NCBI GenBank assembly: GCA_043780615.1
Contig: JAYWDN010000064.1
Location: 3,985-67,984 of the forward strand
Direction: 5' to 3'
From: Bacteroidota bacterium
Lineage (GTDB): Bacteria > Bacteroidota > Bacteroidia > Cytophagales > Cyclobacteriaceae
Length of the DNA stretch: 64,000 bases
In this document: positions 43,764 through 53,670 of the stretch, in pieces
Layout of the letters: each line of letters begins with the position of its first letter
How positions within the stretch are numbered: the stretch's first letter is position 1
Made by a program: the position numbers and the translations under genes
The notes under the pieces: generated by a model
What the model was told of the DNA's origin: nothing
What the model saw: the letters and a program-made list of their open reading frames with translations, nothing else
Database searches by the model: none

Positions 43764-44096
43764 ATGATTTCATGGGAAGACTTCAATAAAATTGAGCTAC
43801 GAGTGGGCACTATTGTCAAATCAGAGCCCTTTGAAGGATTGCGAAACCCAGCGATCAAACTTTGGGTGGACTTGGGACCAGAATTGGGCGTAAAAAAATC
43901 GAGTGCTCAGATCACTCATCGCTATTCGCCAGAAGAACTTATCGGCAAACAAGTAGTGTGCGTTACCAACTTTCCACCCAAACAGATTTCCGATTTCATT
44001 TCTGAAATATTGGTCACCGGTTTCCCCGATGAAGAAGGTCGCGTGATACTTACTGCAATCGATAAGCCAGTACCCAATGGAGCCAAACTTTTTTGA
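43764..44096 (+). CDS. csaA: tRNA-binding protein / secretion chaperone CsaA-like
   Basis: ELRVGTI, KKSSAQIT and NFPPKQI...SE.LVTG. Confidence 0.88.
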   Translation: MISWEDFNKIELRVGTIVKSEPFEGLRNPAIKLWVDLGPELGVKKSSAQITHRYSPEELIGKQVVCVTNFPPKQISDFISEILVTGFPDEEGRVILTAIDKPVPNGAKLF

Positions 44097-46534
44097 CGAT
44101 GAATTTTTCTGAACTCGAAAAAATAACCGGAGGGAAAATCATCCAGCTTGCAGCCGATCGGTTAGTGGCAAACTTGGTGATCGACAGCAGGAAGGCAATA
44201 ATTGATGAAGCCTCTGTATTTTTTGCGATGGCTGGCCCGAGGAACAATGGCCACGATTACCTATCAACATTGTACCAACTTGGGTTGCGGCAACTTGTGG
44301 TTGAAGGAAAAATAGATTCGAATGAATTTCCGCTCGCCAATATTTTGCAAGTCGATTCTTCTGTGCGTGCCCTGCAAGCAATTGCAAAAACCCACCGCAG
44401 CAATTTTACATTTCCGGTAGTCGGCATTACGGGTAGCAATGGCAAAACGATTGTCAAAGAATGGTTGTACCAATTGTTGTCGCCCGATTATAGTATTGCA
44501 AAAAACCCGGGCAGTTACAATTCTCAAGTGGGCGTGCCGTTGTCTGTTTGGGCGATGCAAGCCCATCATCAATTTGGGATTTTTGAGGCGGGCATTTCGC
44601 AACCCAATGAAATGCAACAGTTAGAAAAAATCATCCAACCAACACTTGGAATTTTTACCAACATTGGCACCGCCCACGATGAAGGTTTTAAAAATGCGCG
44701 ACAGAAAATCGAAGAGAAGCTGAAACTTTTTCAACACGTAAATAAATTGATTTATTGTGCGGATCATGTTTTGGTTGACGATGCCATCAACAAATTGGGG
44801 ATCCCTAAACTTTCGTGGGGGAAAGAAAAAAACGCAGACATCTTAATAACGCAGACACCTTCTGGTTTTCATTTTTCCTTCAACGAAAAACAGTTTGATC
44901 TTTTTTTCCCATTCAGTGATGCCGCCTCGATTGAGAATGCAACGCACGGGGTGGCGCTGATGCTGCACTTGGGTTACAAAACCGAAACAATTCAAAAAAG
45001 AATCAATGAGCTAAAACCTGTGGCCATGCGCTTGCAGTTGAAGGAGGGGATCAATCAATGTCAAGTGATTGACGACACCTACAACAATGACTTGGCGGGG
45101 CTACAGATCAGCCTTGATTTCTTGCAAGCACAACAAAAACAGAAAAAGACGGTGATTCTTTCTGACCTCCTTCAATCGGGGATGAGCGAGGACGCACTTG
45201 CGGGAACGATTGCATCGATGCTTTCCAAAATTCAAGTTTTCAACTTTATAGGCATTGGGCAGTCGCTGATGAAGCACAAAAAATATTTTTCATCAATACC
45301 TTCCGCCCAATATTTTTCAAGTACCGAAGAATTTTTAAAATCGTTTGATTTTAAATCTATTCAAGATGAAATGCTGTTGGTAAAAGGCGCGCGCGTTTTT
45401 CAATTTGAAAAAATTGTTCAGCACCTGCAACGTAAGGCACACGGCACAGTGATGGAAATCGACTTGGGCAAAATGATGCACAATCTAAATTACTTCAAAT
45501 CGAAATTGAAGCCCGGTGTAAAATTAATGGCCATGGTGAAAGCCTTTGCTTACGGAAGTGGCAGCGAGGAAGTGGCCAACCTATTGCAATATCACAAAGT
45601 CAATTACCTGGGTGTGGCCTATGCCGATGAGGGTGTAGCGCTGAGAAAGAAAAACATTTCGTTGCCCATCATGGTGATGAACCCATCGGAAGAAAGTTTT
45701 GCGATGGTGCTTTCGCATAATCTTGAGCCAGTGATTTACAATTTAAAAATGCTTCACGCTTTAGTCTTTTTTTTAGAAGGCCGGGATTGCCCCATCCATA
45801 TTGAGGCAGAGACGGGTATGCAGCGGCTTGGACTGAGCATAGACGAATTGCCAGCCGTGGTTGAAATCTTAAAGAAAAACACAAACCTGCACGTGAAGTC
45901 AGTATTCTCGCACTTATCTGGAGCGGATGAAAAAGCGCACGACAGTTTTTCGGGTAAGCAATTTGCTTTTTTTCAAAAGTTTTATTCGCAGCTCACCTCG
46001 TCATTGCCCATCAAACCCCTTCGCCACATTCTCAACTCGGCTGGCATCCTTCGTCTCCCCGATTTTCAAATGGACATGGTGCGGTTAGGTATTGGTCTGT
46101 ATGGAATTGACCCAACCCAAGAAAATGATAAGGCACTTCAGTCGGTAGCCACATTGAAAACAGTGATCTCGCAAATCAAAAAAATAAACAAGGGGGAAAC
46201 TGTTGGCTATGGCCGAATGGGGGTAGCTGAACGAGAAACGACAATAGCGACACTTGCCATTGGCTATGCCGATGGGTTTAGCCGCAGTTTCAGTAAAGGA
46301 AAAGGAATGGTGTCAGTGCATGGACAGCGGGCGCGAGTTATTGGAAATGTGTGCATGGACATGACCATGGTGGACATTACGAATATACCCGCAAGGGAAG
46401 GCGATGAGGCAATTATTTTTGGAGATGGACTTCCCATTCATGAAGTAGCAGCAAGCATCGGCACGATTGCTTACGAGATTTTAACGAATACTAGCGAACG
46501 AGTAAAACGTGTTTTTGTTGCCGATGGAGTTTAA
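44093..46534 (+). CDS. alr: Bifunctional MurF-like ligase / alanine racemase
   Basis: GITGSNGKT and DDTYNND (Mur ligase), fused to MVKAFAYG (PLP Lys) and GYADG (racemase). Confidence 0.93.
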   Translation: MTMNFSELEKITGGKIIQLAADRLVANLVIDSRKAIIDEASVFFAMAGPRNNGHDYLSTLYQLGLRQLVVEGKIDSNEFPLANILQVDSSVRALQAIAKTHRSNFTFPVVGITGSNGKTIVKEWLYQLLSPDYSIAKNPGSYNSQVGVPLSVWAMQAHHQFGIFEAGISQPNEMQQLEKIIQPTLGIFTNIGTAHDEGFKNARQKIEEKLKLFQHVNKLIYCADHVLVDDAINKLGIPKLSWGKEKNADILITQTPSGFHFSFNEKQFDLFFPFSDAASIENATHGVALMLHLGYKTETIQKRINELKPVAMRLQLKEGINQCQVIDDTYNNDLAGLQISLDFLQAQQKQKKTVILSDLLQSGMSEDALAGTIASMLSKIQVFNFIGIGQSLMKHKKYFSSIPSAQYFSSTEEFLKSFDFKSIQDEMLLVKGARVFQFEKIVQHLQRKAHGTVMEIDLGKMMHNLNYFKSKLKPGVKLMAMVKAFAYGSGSEEVANLLQYHKVNYLGVAYADEGVALRKKNISLPIMVMNPSEESFAMVLSHNLEPVIYNLKMLHALVFFLEGRDCPIHIEAETGMQRLGLSIDELPAVVEILKKNTNLHVKSVFSHLSGADEKAHDSFSGKQFAFFQKFYSQLTSSLPIKPLRHILNSAGILRLPDFQMDMVRLGIGLYGIDPTQENDKALQSVATLKTVISQIKKINKGETVGYGRMGVAERETTIATLAIGYADGFSRSFSKGKGMVSVHGQRARVIGNVCMDMTMVDITNIPAREGDEAIIFGDGLPIHEVAASIGTIAYEILTNTSERVKRVFVADGV

Positions 46535-46535
46535 A

Positions 46536-47027
46536 TCAAAGCAAGTCGTTCACGGCTTCCCAAACTGCCTCGGGTTCATAACCTTTGCCAATCACAAAAC
46601 GCGCAATGGTGTTCTTCTTTTTAAAGAGATTTTCTTCAGTTGTGAGGTTCGATTTTTTTTTGATCAACCCATGCAATGTTTTCGAATAATCTGAAGCGTT
46701 GATCTCGGCAAGCCCACGAGCAATGCATTTTGGTGTGAGCCCCGCCATCTCCAACTCGCGTTGGATTTTTAATCGCCCCCACTTCATCATTCGAAATTTT
46801 CCTCCGGCAAATGCTTTGGCAAAACGCTCTTCGTTGAGAAAGCCCTCGGTGATCAGGTGGGCAAGCGTTTCGTTCACCTCGTCCGATCGCAAACCGTATC
46901 CGTACAATTTATTTTTTACCTCTTTGTGCGAGCGCTCTTGATAAGCGCAATAGCGATGAATTTTTGCCTTGGCTTCTTCTATGCTGATGGGTATAGGCGG
47001 GTTGTCATTTTGATGTTTAGGGTTCAT
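46536..47027 (-). CDS. recX: Regulatory protein RecX
   Basis: YCAYQERSHKEV, FLNEERFA and KWGRLKI. Confidence 0.92.
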   Translation of the reverse strand: MNPKHQNDNPPIPISIEEAKAKIHRYCAYQERSHKEVKNKLYGYGLRSDEVNETLAHLITEGFLNEERFAKAFAGGKFRMMKWGRLKIQRELEMAGLTPKCIARGLAEINASDYSKTLHGLIKKKSNLTTEENLFKKKNTIARFVIGKGYEPEAVWEAVNDLL

Positions 47028-47065: not shown

Positions 47066-47560
47066 TTATTTCACCAACCCTTTGTTTCTAAGGATGCTCA
47101 ATACGAATTTCCGCTCGTTGTCGGTATTGAAAATTTTGAAAGGCAAGTAAATCAACTGGGCCTTGTTGATGAAAAGCACAAAAAAATCCTTGCCTACTTG
47201 CGCGCGCTTGATCTGGTCCCACTTCATGGGCATGCCTTCGCGCGGGTTGATCTTCATCACAATTTGCTGACTATTGATTTCGTATGAAAAGCGTTCGAAC
47301 AACATTTTGCCTTGCTCCAGTTGTGTGACGCCATAAAATTGGATCCACCAGAAAAGTAAAAAAAGCCCGGCACCAAAAAAAGCGGCAAAGAACCACCACC
47401 CGCTTGCGATCCACACATAGCCGAGGCAGATGGCCAGCGCAATCAGGCCGGCCCACCATTGTCTTTTCAACACGCTGAAGAAGGCGGTGCGGATGTATGT
47501 CTTTTTTTCTAGACGATAATTTTTTGTTTTGACGAGCATACGGTTAATAATTGACCGCAA
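47066..47560 (-). CDS. YcxB-like membrane protein
   Basis: Two TM helices followed by a PH-like tail (WDQIKRA...QLIYLP..IF). Confidence 0.65.
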   Translation of the reverse strand: MRSIINRMLVKTKNYRLEKKTYIRTAFFSVLKRQWWAGLIALAICLGYVWIASGWWFFAAFFGAGLFLLFWWIQFYGVTQLEQGKMLFERFSYEINSQQIVMKINPREGMPMKWDQIKRAQVGKDFFVLFINKAQLIYLPFKIFNTDNERKFVLSILRNKGLVK

Positions 47561-47596
47561 AAGTAATCGTTTCCCTACAAAGGCGTTTTAATTTTT

Positions 47597-48490
47597 TTAA
47601 ACGATTTTATAGTTCTTGTATTCTCCGATTCGGTAGCCCGTAAATGAATAGACAAACCGTTTTATTTTTTCTTTAAGAGAATATTTTTTCTTGGCAAGAT
47701 CATATTTGAATCTCCAGTTTATCTGATGGATCCGTGCACGCAGTGCCATGGGGTGTGTGCCATCAAACAGTTCGAGCGAATCGATATTGCTGTAATCAAA
47801 TGCCTCTGCCTTTACCACGTTTTCATTTATCCACTGATCATCGTGATAGAACTTTGTCCAGTCTTGCTGCTTGTGCTGCATGGCACGTGGGTCTTTCACC
47901 CAGCCATAGTGATAGATAAATGCATCGATCAATTTCACACGCAATTTTTCGCTTGCCTGCCGGTAGGCAGGGTTTGGTTTTTTGCGAAAGCCCTGTGCAT
48001 CGCGGTAAGAAAAAATGTTTTTATTGTTTCGCACAATTCGGATTTCCCTTCGGTACCAGCGCCACGACTCGCCCACGTAATCATACGAGCCATAAAAATG
48101 TTTGTAGTTGAAGAGCAGGCCATCAATTGATCGGTCGTCTTTGTATTTCTCCATTGCCTCGCGAATGGCAGGAAAATATTTTTCATGCACCGCCTCATCG
48201 GCCTGAACATAAAACGCCCAATCGCTGTCGGGTGAGATGGCCCGAAAAGCCTTGTCTGTTTCCAAAGCAAACGTCCTGCCGCCTTCGCGCAGGTTGTCAT
48301 CCCAAATCGTTTCAATGATTTTTATTTTGGGAGAATTGATATTACGGATCAACGCCATCGTATCGTCAGAAGAATTGCCTACGGCCACCACGAACTCATC
48401 ACAAAGGGGAAGCACGGAAGAAATGGCCTCCACTACTGGATAATCATATTTTACCGCATTGCGGATAATAGTAAAGCCACTGACTTTCAT
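47597..48490 (-). CDS. Glycosyltransferase family 2 with 7-aa in-frame insertion
   Basis: SGFTIIRNA..YDYP, QADE and YHYGWV. Contains PAYRQAS, encoded by a palindromic element. Confidence 0.85.
   Translation of the reverse strand: MKVSGFTIIRNAVKYDYPVVEAISSVLPLCDEFVVAVGNSSDDTMALIRNINSPKIKIIETIWDDNLREGGRTFALETDKAFRAISPDSDWAFYVQADEAVHEKYFPAIREAMEKYKDDRSIDGLLFNYKHFYGSYDYVGESWRWYRREIRIVRNNKNIFSYRDAQGFRKKPNPAYRQASEKLRVKLIDAFIYHYGWVKDPRAMQHKQQDWTKFYHDDQWINENVVKAEAFDYSNIDSLELFDGTHPMALRARIHQINWRFKYDLAKKKYSLKEKIKRFVYSFTGYRIGEYKNYKIV
47951..47971. repeat. 21-bp REP-like palindrome within coding sequence
   Basis: Minus strand CCTGCC-TACC-GGCAGG-CAAGC is a hairpin exactly 7 codons long. Confidence 0.7.
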
Positions 48491-48572
48491 GAGCCCAAAA
48501 AAACAAAGTTAATATCAGCCGAACTAAAAATAGTTTGTTTTTAGAATACTTTATTTTGTTCTTTGAAACGAA

Positions 48573-49469
48573 ATGATTGTAGGCACAGAAATAGCTCAGG
48601 TCAAGAAATCGAATAGTAAGGATCGATTATTTTCTATTTTGATTCCCTCCTGGAACAACTTGCCCTACTTGAAATTGTGTGTCGAAAGCATTCGCAAAAA
48701 CTCTACGTTTTCCCACCAGATAATAGTTCACGTCAACGAAGGCAGAGATGGTTCGCTGGAATGGGTGAAAGAACAACCCGATCTTGATTTTGTGCACAGC
48801 GACAAAAACATTGGGGTTTGCTATGCGCTGAATGGATGCCGCTCGTTGGTGGACACCTCCTACATTTTGTTTATTAACGATGACATGTATGTTTGCCCCA
48901 ATTGGGACAAATACTTAAAGGAAGAGATCGATAATATTGGGCATCACTATTTTTTTCTTTCCTCTACCGCTATCGAGCCCGTCTTTAGTAGCAATTGTGC
49001 CATTCAAAAAGACTATGGCCGCACCATCGAAACTTTTGATGAGAAAAAACTCCTCGAAGAATTTGAATCGTTGCCAAAAAAAGATTGGCTCGGTGCAACA
49101 TGGCCACCCAATGTGGTTCATGTAAATGTGTGGGATATGGTGGGCGGTTACAGCGCGGAGTTTTCACCCGGTCTTTATTCTGACCCCGATTTTTCAATGA
49201 AACTTTGGAAGATGGGTATCCGGTTTTTCAAAGGAGTGGGCAAGAGCAGGGTTTATCATTTTGGCTCTAAGTCGGTAAAGCGAGTGAAAAGGAATGCGGG
49301 GTATTATAAATTCATTTCAAAGTGGGGAATAACTTCGAGTACGTTATCCAATCAATATTTGCACCGAGGCAAACCTTTTACGGGTTATCTTTTTAAACCA
49401 GTGATTGGATTGGATATTCGATTCAAGAATGTTTTGAAGAGGATGGGCGCGGTATTCAGGCGAGCTTAA
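48573..49469 (+). CDS. Glycosyltransferase family 2
   Basis: SILIPSWNN, FINDDM and SDPDFSMKLW. Confidence 0.85.
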   Translation: MIVGTEIAQVKKSNSKDRLFSILIPSWNNLPYLKLCVESIRKNSTFSHQIIVHVNEGRDGSLEWVKEQPDLDFVHSDKNIGVCYALNGCRSLVDTSYILFINDDMYVCPNWDKYLKEEIDNIGHHYFFLSSTAIEPVFSSNCAIQKDYGRTIETFDEKKLLEEFESLPKKDWLGATWPPNVVHVNVWDMVGGYSAEFSPGLYSDPDFSMKLWKMGIRFFKGVGKSRVYHFGSKSVKRVKRNAGYYKFISKWGITSSTLSNQYLHRGKPFTGYLFKPVIGLDIRFKNVLKRMGAVFRRA

Positions 49470-49489: not shown

Positions 49490-50416
49490 TCAGATTAGCG
49501 TAAAAAACATTTTTACACAAAAGAGAACCTTTCGAAATGGTGACCTTTTTTTTGTTGCTAACAATTCGTCTTTAAATTTTAAAAAAGTAATCATTCTCAA
49601 AAAATTAGTAGAAAGAGAAAAGTTAGTATAACTTTTCGTCAGGCTTCTTAAAACTTTTTTTGCTTCAACAGAATCAGGACATGTTACGTAAAACAGAGAA
49701 ATCCGATTCCGGATTATGGTAAGCTTATTGATTTTGTCTTCGTCCTTCTTCCTCCCTTTTATTTTTATAGCACCAATTACATTTCCGGTATGCTGTCGGT
49801 ATTTCACCAATGGTTGATCCACAAATTGAATAACCCCTTGCGTAGAGGCTACGAACGCCAACCACCAATCATGGATAATGAAAGTTGGAAACGGCATCGC
49901 TTTTGTCGCTAATTTTTTTGTAAAGATGGCAGCGTGTCCTGATACCGTGTTGCCGATTATAAAGGGCAAAGGATTAGTATAGGTAGCAAGGTTTTTGATA
50001 TCAGAAATTCTTCTTCCTAAACTCTTCCCCTCACTATTAATGAATATCGAATCACAATAAATAATTACAGTATTTTCCTTCCAAGAATTCATCAATACGG
50101 AAACCTTGTTTTCAGCCCACACATCATCCTGATCGCACAAGGAAATAAATCCCCCACTACAGAGTTTGATCCCACGCTCGAAGGTTTTTGAAGGCCCGCA
50201 GTTTATTTCATTTTCGTAAACTTTAAAATTGGGATGAAGCAATTCATATTCTTTCAATATCACTAAAGTGGAATCAGATGAACAATCATCCACGGCAATA
50301 ATTTCTAATGGAGCGTAGGTTTGAGCAAATAAACTATCAAGTTGCTCGCGCAAAAACTTTGCGCCATTGTAGGTGGCAATAACAATTGAAACTAGTGGAG
50401 TGTTGGATGCAGGCAT
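49490..50416 (-). CDS. Glycosyltransferase family 2
   Basis: IATYNG, DDCSSD, LCDQDDVW, HDWW and YRQH. Confidence 0.9.
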   Translation of the reverse strand: MPASNTPLVSIVIATYNGAKFLREQLDSLFAQTYAPLEIIAVDDCSSDSTLVILKEYELLHPNFKVYENEINCGPSKTFERGIKLCSGGFISLCDQDDVWAENKVSVLMNSWKENTVIIYCDSIFINSEGKSLGRRISDIKNLATYTNPLPFIIGNTVSGHAAIFTKKLATKAMPFPTFIIHDWWLAFVASTQGVIQFVDQPLVKYRQHTGNVIGAIKIKGRKKDEDKINKLTIIRNRISLFYVTCPDSVEAKKVLRSLTKSYTNFSLSTNFLRMITFLKFKDELLATKKRSPFRKVLFCVKMFFTLI

Positions 50417-53422: not shown

Positions 53423-53515
53423 ATAAAAACCTTGAAAAAAAATTTTAACTGGCCTTATGCAAAATAGTAACGTCTTTGTCCAAAGGGATGCCTTTGGCAC
53501 GAGCACAGCGGTAGG

Positions 53516-53624
53516 GTCGTGCGATGGCGCGAAGCAATCTGTTTAGGGATCGCTTCGCCTCACCACTTCCTCCTCAGGTGCCTGCCTTTGCCGAAGCGGC
53601 TACGCGCAGTCAGGCTCGCGATGC
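53516..53624. repeat. Degenerate composite REP-like element with nested CCTGCC..CAGG unit
   Basis: CGAAGCAATC...GATCGCTTCG...CTCGCGATG matches the element at 59252-59335. A nested CCTGCCTTTGCCGAAGCGGCTACGCGCAGTCAGG lies at 53581-53614. Confidence 0.6.
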
Positions 53625-53670
53625 GTCAAATTATTAGTTTTGCGTATGATCACATTTTAACTTGTTGCCA

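Follow-up and report, generated by a model that had tools for sequence, protein, structure and literature searches.

An in-frame insert in a glycosyltransferase gene

The window, by which we mean the whole 64-kb stretch of the Cyclobacteriaceae contig analysed here (64,000 nt), carries on its minus strand a glycosyltransferase (GT) gene whose reading frame is lengthened by 21 nt. This insert is a copy of a dispersed, GC-rich hairpin element of 20 nt, found in bacteria of many phyla; our overall reading, in which the element is a non-autonomous selfish DNA, has a probability of roughly three in four. The features concerned are the following.

47597-48490, minus strand: host gene, encoding a 297-aa glycosyltransferase of GT-A fold (GT2-like), from the open reading frame (ORF), an AlphaFold model and Foldseek
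47951-47971, minus strand: the 21-nt insert, a copy of the dispersed hairpin element, from its sequence, a clean gap relative to syntenic orthologs, sharp-edged matches and its fold
47972-47992, minus strand: upstream target flank GGCTTTCGCAAAAAACCAAAC (gene sense; codons G F R K K P N), from a DNA comparison of 10 sequences

Read in the sense of the gene, from 47971 to 47951, the insert is CCT GCC TAC CGG CAG GCA AGC and encodes PAYRQAS, in the protein context DAQGFRKKPN-PAYRQAS-EKLRVKLI. Its parts are CCTGCC (47971-47966), a loop TACC (47965-47962), GGCAGG (47961-47956) and a tail made of CAAG and a trailing C (47955-47951). The initial annotation, made from the window alone, had divided the sequence in the same way, and this division coincides with the fold predicted for the single-stranded DNA, a CCTGCC/TACC/GGCAGG hairpin with a 5-nt tail at −6.0 kcal/mol. 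The window copy has the TACC form of the loop and one substitution in the tail when compared with the 20-nt element described below. The edges of the insert are ambiguous by one base (47951-47971 or 47952-47972); the alternative placement, 47952-47972, reads CC-C-TGCCTACCGGCAGGCAAG and falls between the second and third bases of an Asn codon. The upstream flank is A-rich, and highly conserved at the protein level.

The region 47400-48700 was reproduced without differences by contigs of two sediment-metagenome runs, and a contig from a run of another study spans the insert site with 3 substitutions and no gap. As independent metagenome contigs reproduce the region, the insert is not an assembly artefact.

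No Pfam family was matched by the host protein at E ≤ 0.01, the GT2 model PF00535 included, but its initial description as a glycosyltransferase was upheld by its GT-A/GT2 fold. Foldseek retrieved SunS first (7msp, E 4×10−11), then SpsA, TarS and WrtF, with E values from 4×10−11 to 1×10−7. A few homologs have a precomputed PF00535 match, and several are named “glycosyltransferase family 2” by NCBI. The insert corresponds to residues 174-180, a coil between helix 162-165 and strand 185-194 of the AlphaFold model (pLDDT below 50 at residues 176-178; mean pLDDT only 69). As modelled, this position fits a disordered surface loop, evidently tolerated by the glycosyltransferase.

Taken alone, the hairpin is not beyond chance. 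The window contains 8 GC-rich hairpins (6-bp stem, 3-8-nt loop), compared to 4.6 in shuffled sequences, its local GC peaks gave no information on the insert (GC content 44%), and no second copy of the motif was found in the 64 kb, even when up to 5 mismatches were allowed. Judged from sequence, significance comes only through comparison with other sequences. The lack of hairpin enrichment and the single copy would suit an ordinary lineage-specific indel with a coincidental palindromic look. However, the same 20-21-mer with sharp edges is present in more than 120 unrelated contexts and, at the same codon, in four further homologs, and this leaves coincidence with practically no chance of being correct. 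The initial annotation held that a single-copy motif would count against a repeated element. The motif is indeed single in the window, but its family was seen in other genomes, and a single-copy test restricted to this genome would have wrongly dismissed the finding.

The same codon boundary in other homologs

A clean in-frame insertion of 21 bp, as first suspected, was confirmed by the homologs. The seven residues are missing from 117 of the 120 best ones, which read FRKKPN-EKLxVK and have a length of 290 or 286 aa, and the DNA alignment with the syntenic orthologs L216, L220, L218, L224 and L223 shows a gap of exactly 21 bp. Two neighbours lying downstream of the host gene were used as synteny markers.

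47066-47560, minus strand: YcxB-like membrane protein (ORF list)
46536-47027, minus strand: RecX-like protein (ORF list)

The gene order GT-YcxB-RecX was also found in the insert-free loci L216 and L220.

An insert was detected in five of about 176 homologs, always at the identical codon boundary. These carriers fall into four separate clades of the family, their placement having been computed after dropping the insert columns. They are listed with their inserted residues and nearest insert-free relative.

Window gene (WIN): PAYRQAS; nearest P0004, 85% identity
P0057: HAYRQAG; nearest P0128, 89% identity
P0108: LAYRQAG; nearest P0148, 88.5% identity
P0147: RAYQQVG, and P0149: LAYQQAG (sisters, 91.6%); nearest P0155, 84% identity

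Identity among carriers of different clades is only 69-76%. The clade of 286-aa proteins includes insert-free relatives and carriers with a common synteny, GT - sigma-70 - 88 aa - guanylate kinase. At the DNA level the inserts read as follows.

WIN: CCTGCCTACCGGCAGGCAAGC
L001: CATGCCTACCGGCAGGCAGGT
L003: CTTGCCTACCGGCAGGCAGGC
L221: CGTGCCTACCAGCAGGTTGGT
L222: CTTGCCTACCAGCAGGCAGGT

The 10-sequence comparison placed the insertion at or inside the Asn codon (AA^Y) in 5 carriers out of 5, the target for insertion being AAAAAACCAAAC/GAAAAA. With this placement the five inserts read CC-N-TGCCTACCGGCAGGCAGG, where N is C, A, T, G and T. The WIN, L001 and L003 genes are 28-29% diverged and their third codon positions are about 50% identical, whereas only 1-2 of the 20 element positions vary between their inserts (2-3 of 21 with the trailing base). 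The inserts are thus far more recent than the divergence of the three genes. In the sisters L221/L222, an older copy is decaying like ordinary loop sequence.

Could the seven residues be ancestral, precisely deleted many times, and their likeness to a repeat be secondary? Palindromes are prone to deletion, and P0147 and P0149 illustrate how the insert can be retained and diverge like any other coding sequence. Nevertheless, about 171 of the 176 homologs lack it and the carriers are nested in four places, so that many identical 21-bp deletions would be needed, at a site devoid of flanking direct repeats. The insert is moreover far less diverged than the genes, and an identical element is found in unrelated genes and phyla. 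A scenario of four gains at a single bond is far more parsimonious than many precise deletions, and an ancestral origin is very improbable.

The five carriers are alike in having the minority TACC variant, in orientation and in codon boundary, even though the perfect form of the element is about 3 times commoner. This would be accounted for by a single origin of the 21-bp insert, followed by lateral spread of the allele among Cytophagales through short-patch recombination or gene conversion. The flanking protein sequence is nearly invariant and offers some homology for such exchanges, and the carriers come from similar sediment and freshwater metagenomes. However, synonymous differences start 3-10 nt from the insert on both sides (between WIN and L001, CCA/CCT and CGC/AGA upstream, TTG/TTA downstream), which would reduce the conversion tract to less than about 35 bp. 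The extra base N differs among carriers (C, A, T, G/T), and each whole carrier gene groups with insert-free relatives. Finally, in 3 cases out of 3 the trailing base of the insert follows the Asn codon of the nearest insert-free relative (AAT for L224/L001; AAC for L220/WIN and L223/L003). Spread of one allele thus appears quite improbable.

Since the carriers lie in four clades, each with closer insert-free relatives, we concluded that the GT site is an insertion hotspot. It is likely that the same bond of the GT gene gained the element independently in at least four lineages, rather than by allele transfer. A template switch or a local donor was rejected as the origin of the insert, as the insert-free orthologs have no GC-rich half-site at this position. 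A 60-aa profile spanning the insert and aimed at all carriers matched only short fragments, and a metagenome scan for the pattern of GT flank plus element gave no match.

A 20-nt hairpin sequence found in many phyla

The consensus of the element is CCTGNC-T(G/A)CC-GN'CAGG-CAGG, that is a 6-bp stem, a 4-nt loop and a 4-nt tail, and the 20-nt unit is embedded in unrelated sequence: CCTGCCTACCGGCAGGCAGG. Most often it takes the form of the perfect palindrome CCTGCCTGCCGGCAGGCAGG. The common 16-mer TGCCTACCGGCAGGCA was searched for in one genome per species (596 Gb) and found in at least 120 stretches. A few hundred matches to a 16-mer could arise by chance in 596 Gb. The flanks of the matches were strongly biased, with C occupying position −2 in 92% of them and −1 in 77%, and G occupying +16 in 91% and +17 in 94%; further out, a weaker C at −3 and C/T at +18 were followed by random composition. 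The full CC...GG was present in 88 of the 127 matches listed, compared to about 0.5 expected. Despite the chance matches to the 16-mer, such non-random flanks with sharp limits indicate a discrete 20-nt unit. Allowing up to 4 mismatches, 151 sites were scored in 810 kb of loci, and none in shuffled sequences. The proposal that the insert belongs to a very small dispersed palindromic element was thereby substantiated, the same 16-20-mer with sharp edges being found at at least 120 genome loci.

Among about 122 copies, the loop was TGCC in 105 and TACC in 13. Stem positions 5 and 12 covary (C:G 210, T:A 22, A:T 2, G:C 2, non-Watson-Crick 8), which supports a 6-bp hairpin with a 4-nt tail rather than a plain 20-bp palindrome. 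The two orientations of the element differ by only 2 nt.

Hosts among the matches listed include Chitinophagales, Sphingobacteriales, Bacteroidales, Flavobacteriales, Ignavibacteria and many Patescibacteria, as well as Omnitrophota, Planctomycetota, Chloroflexota, Nitrospirota and deltaproteobacteria. Cultured isolates are also represented (Olivibacter oleidegradans CCM 7765, Terrimonas sp. NS-102 and Thermobacterium salinum), and several genomes have at least 2 to 4 copies among these matches. The complete genome of Cytophagales bacterium WSM2-2 contains the element as well. On the viral side, the exact 20-mer in its TACC form was found in 12 stretches and the perfect form CCTGCCTGCCGGCAGGCAGG in 35, with six copies on one 29-kb viral contig. 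From these viral counts, the TACC form makes up about 25% of the copies and the perfect form is about 3 times commoner. Rfam has no family over the hairpin or the tRNA-associated cassette described below, tRNA itself apart, and no description of the element sequence, of its encoded peptides or of the cassette was found in a literature search that was not exhaustive.

Several arrangements of copies deserve mention. Nested copies, in which one 20-mer is centred in another for a net gain of 20 nt, were seen in L013 (5390-5440), L036 (2950-3000), L052 (7940-7990) and L102 (3500-3560). Inverted doublets about 20 nt apart, resembling REPIN-like pairs, are present in L075, L116 and L065. A 16-nt short form, CCTGCCGGCAGGCAGG or CCTGCCTGCCGGCAGG, lies upstream of a GIY-YIG ORF in L141, L156, L158 and L183; being one 4-nt unit shorter, it would be consistent with slippage in the CCTG/CAGG periodicity. 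Other short GC-rich hairpins, of the ccctctcc-N-ggagaggg and cgcgggaatgac types, adjoin the element in unrelated phyla (L011, L037, L048, L071, L077, L078, L079 and L121), and their recurrence suggests that a larger set of dispersed hairpin elements is common to several phyla.

A unit related to the insert had also been pointed out elsewhere in the window.

53581-53614, plus strand: 34-nt unit CCTGCCTTTGCCGAAGCGGCTACGCGCAGTCAGG, in a GC-rich non-coding block at about 53500-53625

This unit exists at that place, but it is a different, 34-nt element or a relative, and not a copy. It shares the arms CCTGCC...CAGGCAGG with the 20-mer, with the arm pattern CCTGCC...CAGG(C/T)AGG, and its interior is longer and different. 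A 35-nt copy, 91% identical, was found in a deltaproteobacterial metagenome-assembled genome (L037, 3730-3764), in the loop of a ccctctcc/ggagaggg hairpin, and a 30-nt relative lies in frame in the histidine kinase of L048. The block at 53500-53625, located upstream of a sigma-70-type gene that starts at about 53663, has other GC-rich hairpins as well, such as gcgaagcaatctgtttagggatcgcttcgc.

Insert length inside and outside genes

The length of the insert could be checked at about 50 non-coding sites, taking as the empty site the intact tRNA that lies a few hundred bases from a pseudo-tRNA copy. It measured 20 nt at about 44 independent sites, whereas four inserts of 16 nt and two of 18 nt were counted, and none of 21 nt. 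Once the element is taken out of the pseudo-tRNA copies, an ungapped match to the neighbouring tRNA is restored. Neither the flanks nor the comparison of empty and filled sites revealed any target-site duplication at element copies, and no complementarity between flanks was detected. From its distribution and the empty/filled comparisons, the element appears very likely to be actively mobile.

Long ORFs are depleted in the element: they contain 25% of the copies, compared to 72% of random positions in the same loci. The following copies were found inside genes.

L047: TrpRS
L030: MiaA
L014: ValRS
L012: ATP-dependent DNA ligase
L057: RsmH
L074: trigger factor
L048: histidine kinase
L049: GAF protein
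L010: T9SS sorting domain

The idea that the element adds loops to proteins therefore extends from the GT gene to TrpRS, MiaA, ValRS, DNA ligase, trigger factor, RsmH and histidine kinase. Alignment to solved structures gave a gap of exactly 7 residues at the element for TrpRS (2a4m) and MiaA (2qgn and 3d3q); for RsmH, the element falls in a variable region. The reading frames used yield the peptides LPAGRQ, LPTGRQ, PAYRQAG, CLPAGR and CLPVGR. The sixth frame is closed by a TAG, which in L045 (5138-5153) serves to terminate a nitroreductase-like ORF (...EPACR*).

Verified in-gene copies (GT, TrpRS and MiaA) are all 21 nt long. Most of the 21-nt copies inside genes read CC-N-TGCC, an additional base of variable identity following the first two Cs; this base is T in MiaA, RsmH, the GAF protein and the T9SS domain, and A in ValRS and trigger factor. 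This form was counted in 6 of 20 ORF copies, versus 9 of 121 others (Fisher p = 0.008). It had been suggested that the element enters genes without breaking the frame. It does not do so by nature: its unit is 20 nt, and the contrast between 20 nt outside genes and 21 nt inside indicates that frame preservation is a selection filter and not a property of the element. The extra base can be any base, and is thus not explained by simple slippage. Tentatively, and from sequence comparison, it may have been added at the joining step.

A GIY-YIG gene and tRNA genes near the element

To the question of a nuclease or transposase gene flanked by the motif, raised from the window alone, the answer was mixed: a small GIY-YIG nuclease gene was found at tRNA genes, and no transposase. 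All-against-all clustering of the ORFs in about 0.9 Mb around some 140 copies showed that sensor kinases, which are common, and the GIY-YIG gene recur, and that no transposase or recombinase family does. Pairs of copies 1.6 kb apart (L045 and L081) enclose ordinary genes and no transposase. All 6 small GIY-YIG ORFs in these element-centred loci lie within 400 nt of a copy, as do 16 of the 31 tRNA genes, when about 10% would be expected.

The reverse test was based on 80 metagenomic loci encoding relatives of the GIY-YIG protein, of which at least 556 are present in JGI metagenomes. The element was found in 61 of these 80 loci, and a tRNA gene within 300 nt in 70. The start of the element lies at a median of 47 nt upstream of the GIY-YIG ORF (interquartile range 41-52). 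The domain was identified by Pfam PF01541 above the curated cut-off, with E values from 1×10−12 to 3×10−17. The cassette is ordered as follows: the 5′ part of a tRNA interrupted by the hairpin, about 25 nt, the GIY-YIG ORF of 75-85 aa, 2-35 nt, and an intact tRNA. The hairpin is mostly placed in the D-arm or D-loop of the tRNA 5′ part, which often comes with a few bases of the tRNA upstream flank. Cassette tRNAs are Leu (five anticodons), Arg (four), Asn, Lys and Met. The loci concerned are given below.

L136-L215: cassette loci, for example L209 (640-1075) and L142 (1930-2305)
L065 (7290-7760), L046 (1250-1835), L017 (3440-3890), L090 (2570-3050): further cassette loci

This cassette looks like an undescribed selfish nuclease element associated with tRNA genes. 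From this arrangement, the GIY-YIG nuclease is a candidate mobiliser, which quite possibly binds or cleaves the hairpin and moves the element in trans. As the window has neither a GIY-YIG gene nor a tRNA gene, the coexistence of the enzyme with an element copy is not established for this genome.

Two loci show other associations of the hairpin with tRNA. In L249 (2239-2330), ARAGORN predicts a 92-nt phage tRNA-Met with a perfect 20-mer placed exactly in the variable loop; according to this prediction, the hairpin would mimic a long variable arm, and the tRNA may still be working. In L089 (2369-3200), tandem units made of a tRNA fragment and a GC-rich hairpin lie upstream of tRNA-Met and of the GIY-YIG gene, and a degenerate tRNA copy further downstream has several different hairpins, with the 20-mer in its T-arm.

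Alternatively, the element would be mobile, but moved by something else: a REP-type Y1 transposase (RAYT/IS200-like) encoded elsewhere, or host replication and repair acting on hairpin DNA. The GIY-YIG cassettes would then merely collect the hairpin in a neutral, structured pseudo-tRNA, or use it as a regulatory or stabilising hairpin. In being a short hairpin that bears an unpaired 4-nt tag and leaves its target unduplicated, the element is similar to tagged REPs (PMC3733652); GIY-YIG genes lie at a long distance from most solo copies, and copies also occur in other hairpin loops and in the phage tRNA variable loop just mentioned. On the other hand, no Y1 transposase or other recurrent enzyme family was found in the 0.9 Mb of flanks, the tag is CAGG/CCTG and not GTAG or CGTC, and REP families are species-specific whereas the element is common to many phyla. 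An occupancy of 76% at a fixed distance from GIY-YIG ORFs, next to different tRNA species, is also hard to reconcile with passive accumulation. We regard another mover as unlikely.

Proposed mode of spread and target preference

Our preferred reading, a dispersed hairpin element of which the insert is one copy, can be extended into the following scheme. The element would be a non-autonomous selfish DNA, pasted into new sites without target duplication, and its home would be the cassette of tRNA fragment, GIY-YIG gene and tRNA. Such a cassette could cross phyla at conserved tRNA genes, carrying the hairpin along; the conservation of tRNA genes across phyla would explain why an identical 20-mer is found in distant hosts. 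Solo copies would scatter elsewhere, often into the loops of larger hairpins and rarely into genes. There, a 20-nt insertion would shift the frame, and only rare 21-nt versions, with an extra base at a fixed junction, would survive. In the window, the 21-mer would have entered the Asn codon AA^C of the GT gene and added seven residues to a surface loop. More speculatively, the 20-nt hairpin and the 75-85-aa GIY-YIG protein may together form an unrecognised mobile system, in which a nuclease-only cassette homes to tRNA genes and disperses its own recognition hairpin by a cut-and-join process, with no target duplication and occasionally one untemplated base. We consider this joint proposal less likely than not.

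The flanks of element copies fold at a mean of −7.5 kcal/mol, compared to −6.0 to −6.6 kcal/mol for permuted flank pairs, and about 20 copies sit at the tip of terminator-like hairpins (e.g. L053, L061 and L056). Targeting of a hairpin loop was nevertheless discarded as an explanation for the GT hotspot: its flanks, which are A-rich, can form at best a weak 5-bp stem in the window, and do not form any in L001.

A number of points speak against the scheme, or parts of it. The window has a single copy of the element, and contains no GIY-YIG ORF and no tRNA gene. Among 47 viral loci in which the element is present, only 1 has a GIY-YIG gene in its vicinity. The hairpin could serve the cassette itself, as an operator, as a structure at the end or 5′ side of an mRNA, or as an anti-recombination spacer between the tRNA repeats; or else the pseudo-tRNA could simply be a favoured target of the element. 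The preference for hairpin loops is only modest, with a junction in a loop in 67 of 139 cases versus 48-61 in permutations. No target consensus that would explain the GT hotspot was found, the site being A-rich, AAAAAACCNAA^YGARAA. All four GT gains are of the minority TACC form and in one orientation, which is unexpected if they were fully independent; lineage-specific sources, selection on the peptide or some allele transfer could be responsible for this uniformity. Lastly, the extra base N of the 21-nt copies has no explained source.

Comparison with known systems

The palindromic elements of Rickettsia (RPEs) measure about 100-150 bp, have a long palindromic stem, and are confined to Rickettsia and close relatives. 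They are selfish palindromes inserted in frame in protein genes, to which they add peptides, and are also found in non-coding DNA (PMC3733652, PMC1779305). The comparison with RPEs, made at the outset, holds as an analogy. Like them, the element lies in frame in conserved genes and is absent from orthologs (GT, TrpRS, MiaA). Unlike them, it is 20 nt long (21 in genes), about six times shorter, it is non-rickettsial and spread over many phyla, and it is linked to GIY-YIG and tRNA genes. No sequence similarity of the element to RPEs was found.

Repetitive extragenic palindromes (REPs) are GC-rich hairpins of 20-40 nt that have an unpaired tetranucleotide, GTAG or CGTC, at one end and reach a high copy number within one genome; they do not duplicate their target. 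Most lie between genes, but some are located within ORFs, sometimes at about the same position of orthologous genes in two Xanthomonas species, and others provide a stop codon (PMC3733652). The element is likewise a short GC-rich stem-loop with an unpaired tetranucleotide, and its L045 copy gives a TAG stop. It differs from REPs in its tag (CAGG, or CCTG on the other strand), in a sequence that is not species-specific, in a home copy that interrupts a tRNA fragment, and in its surroundings, where a GIY-YIG nuclease is associated with it instead of a RAYT/Y1 transposase, of which none was seen around the 140 copies. We class the element among the palindromic mobile repeats of REP/RPE kind, without the defining features of either.

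Miniature inverted-repeat transposable elements measure about 50-500 bp, have terminal inverted repeats and are flanked by a target-site duplication; the element, in contrast, is 20 nt long and produces no such duplication. The GC clusters of yeast mitochondria and the double-hairpin elements of Allomyces and chytrids are short GC-rich palindromes in AT-richer DNA, optional between strains, occasionally in frame in genes (e.g. var1) and near mobile endonuclease ORFs. Such palindromes belong to organelles and measure about 30-50 bp or more, and short target duplications accompany some classes. We know of no mitochondrial GC palindrome with a tRNA-gene cassette, or spread among bacterial phyla. 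By analogy, GC clusters and Allomyces double hairpins may be considered close functional analogues of the element.

Concerning the cassette, SegB of phage T4 is a larger protein, phage-borne and provided with DNA-binding modules, and to our knowledge no dispersed 20-nt hairpin accompanies it. It is a GIY-YIG nuclease whose gene lies among tRNA genes and is linked to duplication and amplification of tRNA segments (PMC2988022, PMC13096335). Unlike SegB, the cassette proteins are bare catalytic domains of 75-85 aa in bacterial chromosomes. They share the GIY-YIG domain with homing-endonuclease cassettes, which cleave an insert-free target allele sequence-specifically and are copied into it; for the cassette described here, such homing would be a reading of its architecture.

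Genes around the host gene

Two more GT2-like ORFs, at 48573-49469 (plus strand) and 49490-50416 (minus strand), adjoin the host gene, so that the insert sits within a polysaccharide-type glycosyltransferase cluster. The loci of insert-free relatives also have GT and methyltransferase neighbours. Further away, an 813-aa ORF (44093-46534, plus strand) looks, from its translation judged by eye, like a fusion of a MurF-type ligase and an alanine racemase; such fusions are known in Bacteroidota.

Implications

If our reading is correct, a 20-base sequence, so far unnamed, would be among the most widely shared mobile DNAs of bacteria, from Bacteroidota to the candidate phyla radiation and phages. 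It would amount to a natural experiment on the tolerance of proteins to random insertions in loops, with the same 7 residues in TrpRS, ValRS, MiaA, DNA ligase and glycosyltransferases, and to a clear case of selection removing 20-nt insertions and leaving those of 21 nt. It would explain the spurious “LPAGRQ/PTGRQA” peptides and the odd pseudo-tRNAs found in annotations, and the hairpin could mark recent insertion events in metagenomic populations. The cassette points to a function for the very abundant, uncharacterised stand-alone GIY-YIG genes located beside tRNA genes. Should the hairpin and the GIY-YIG protein indeed form a mobile system, it would be the smallest mobile DNA known, repeatedly providing essential proteins with 7-residue loops and tRNAs with extra arms.

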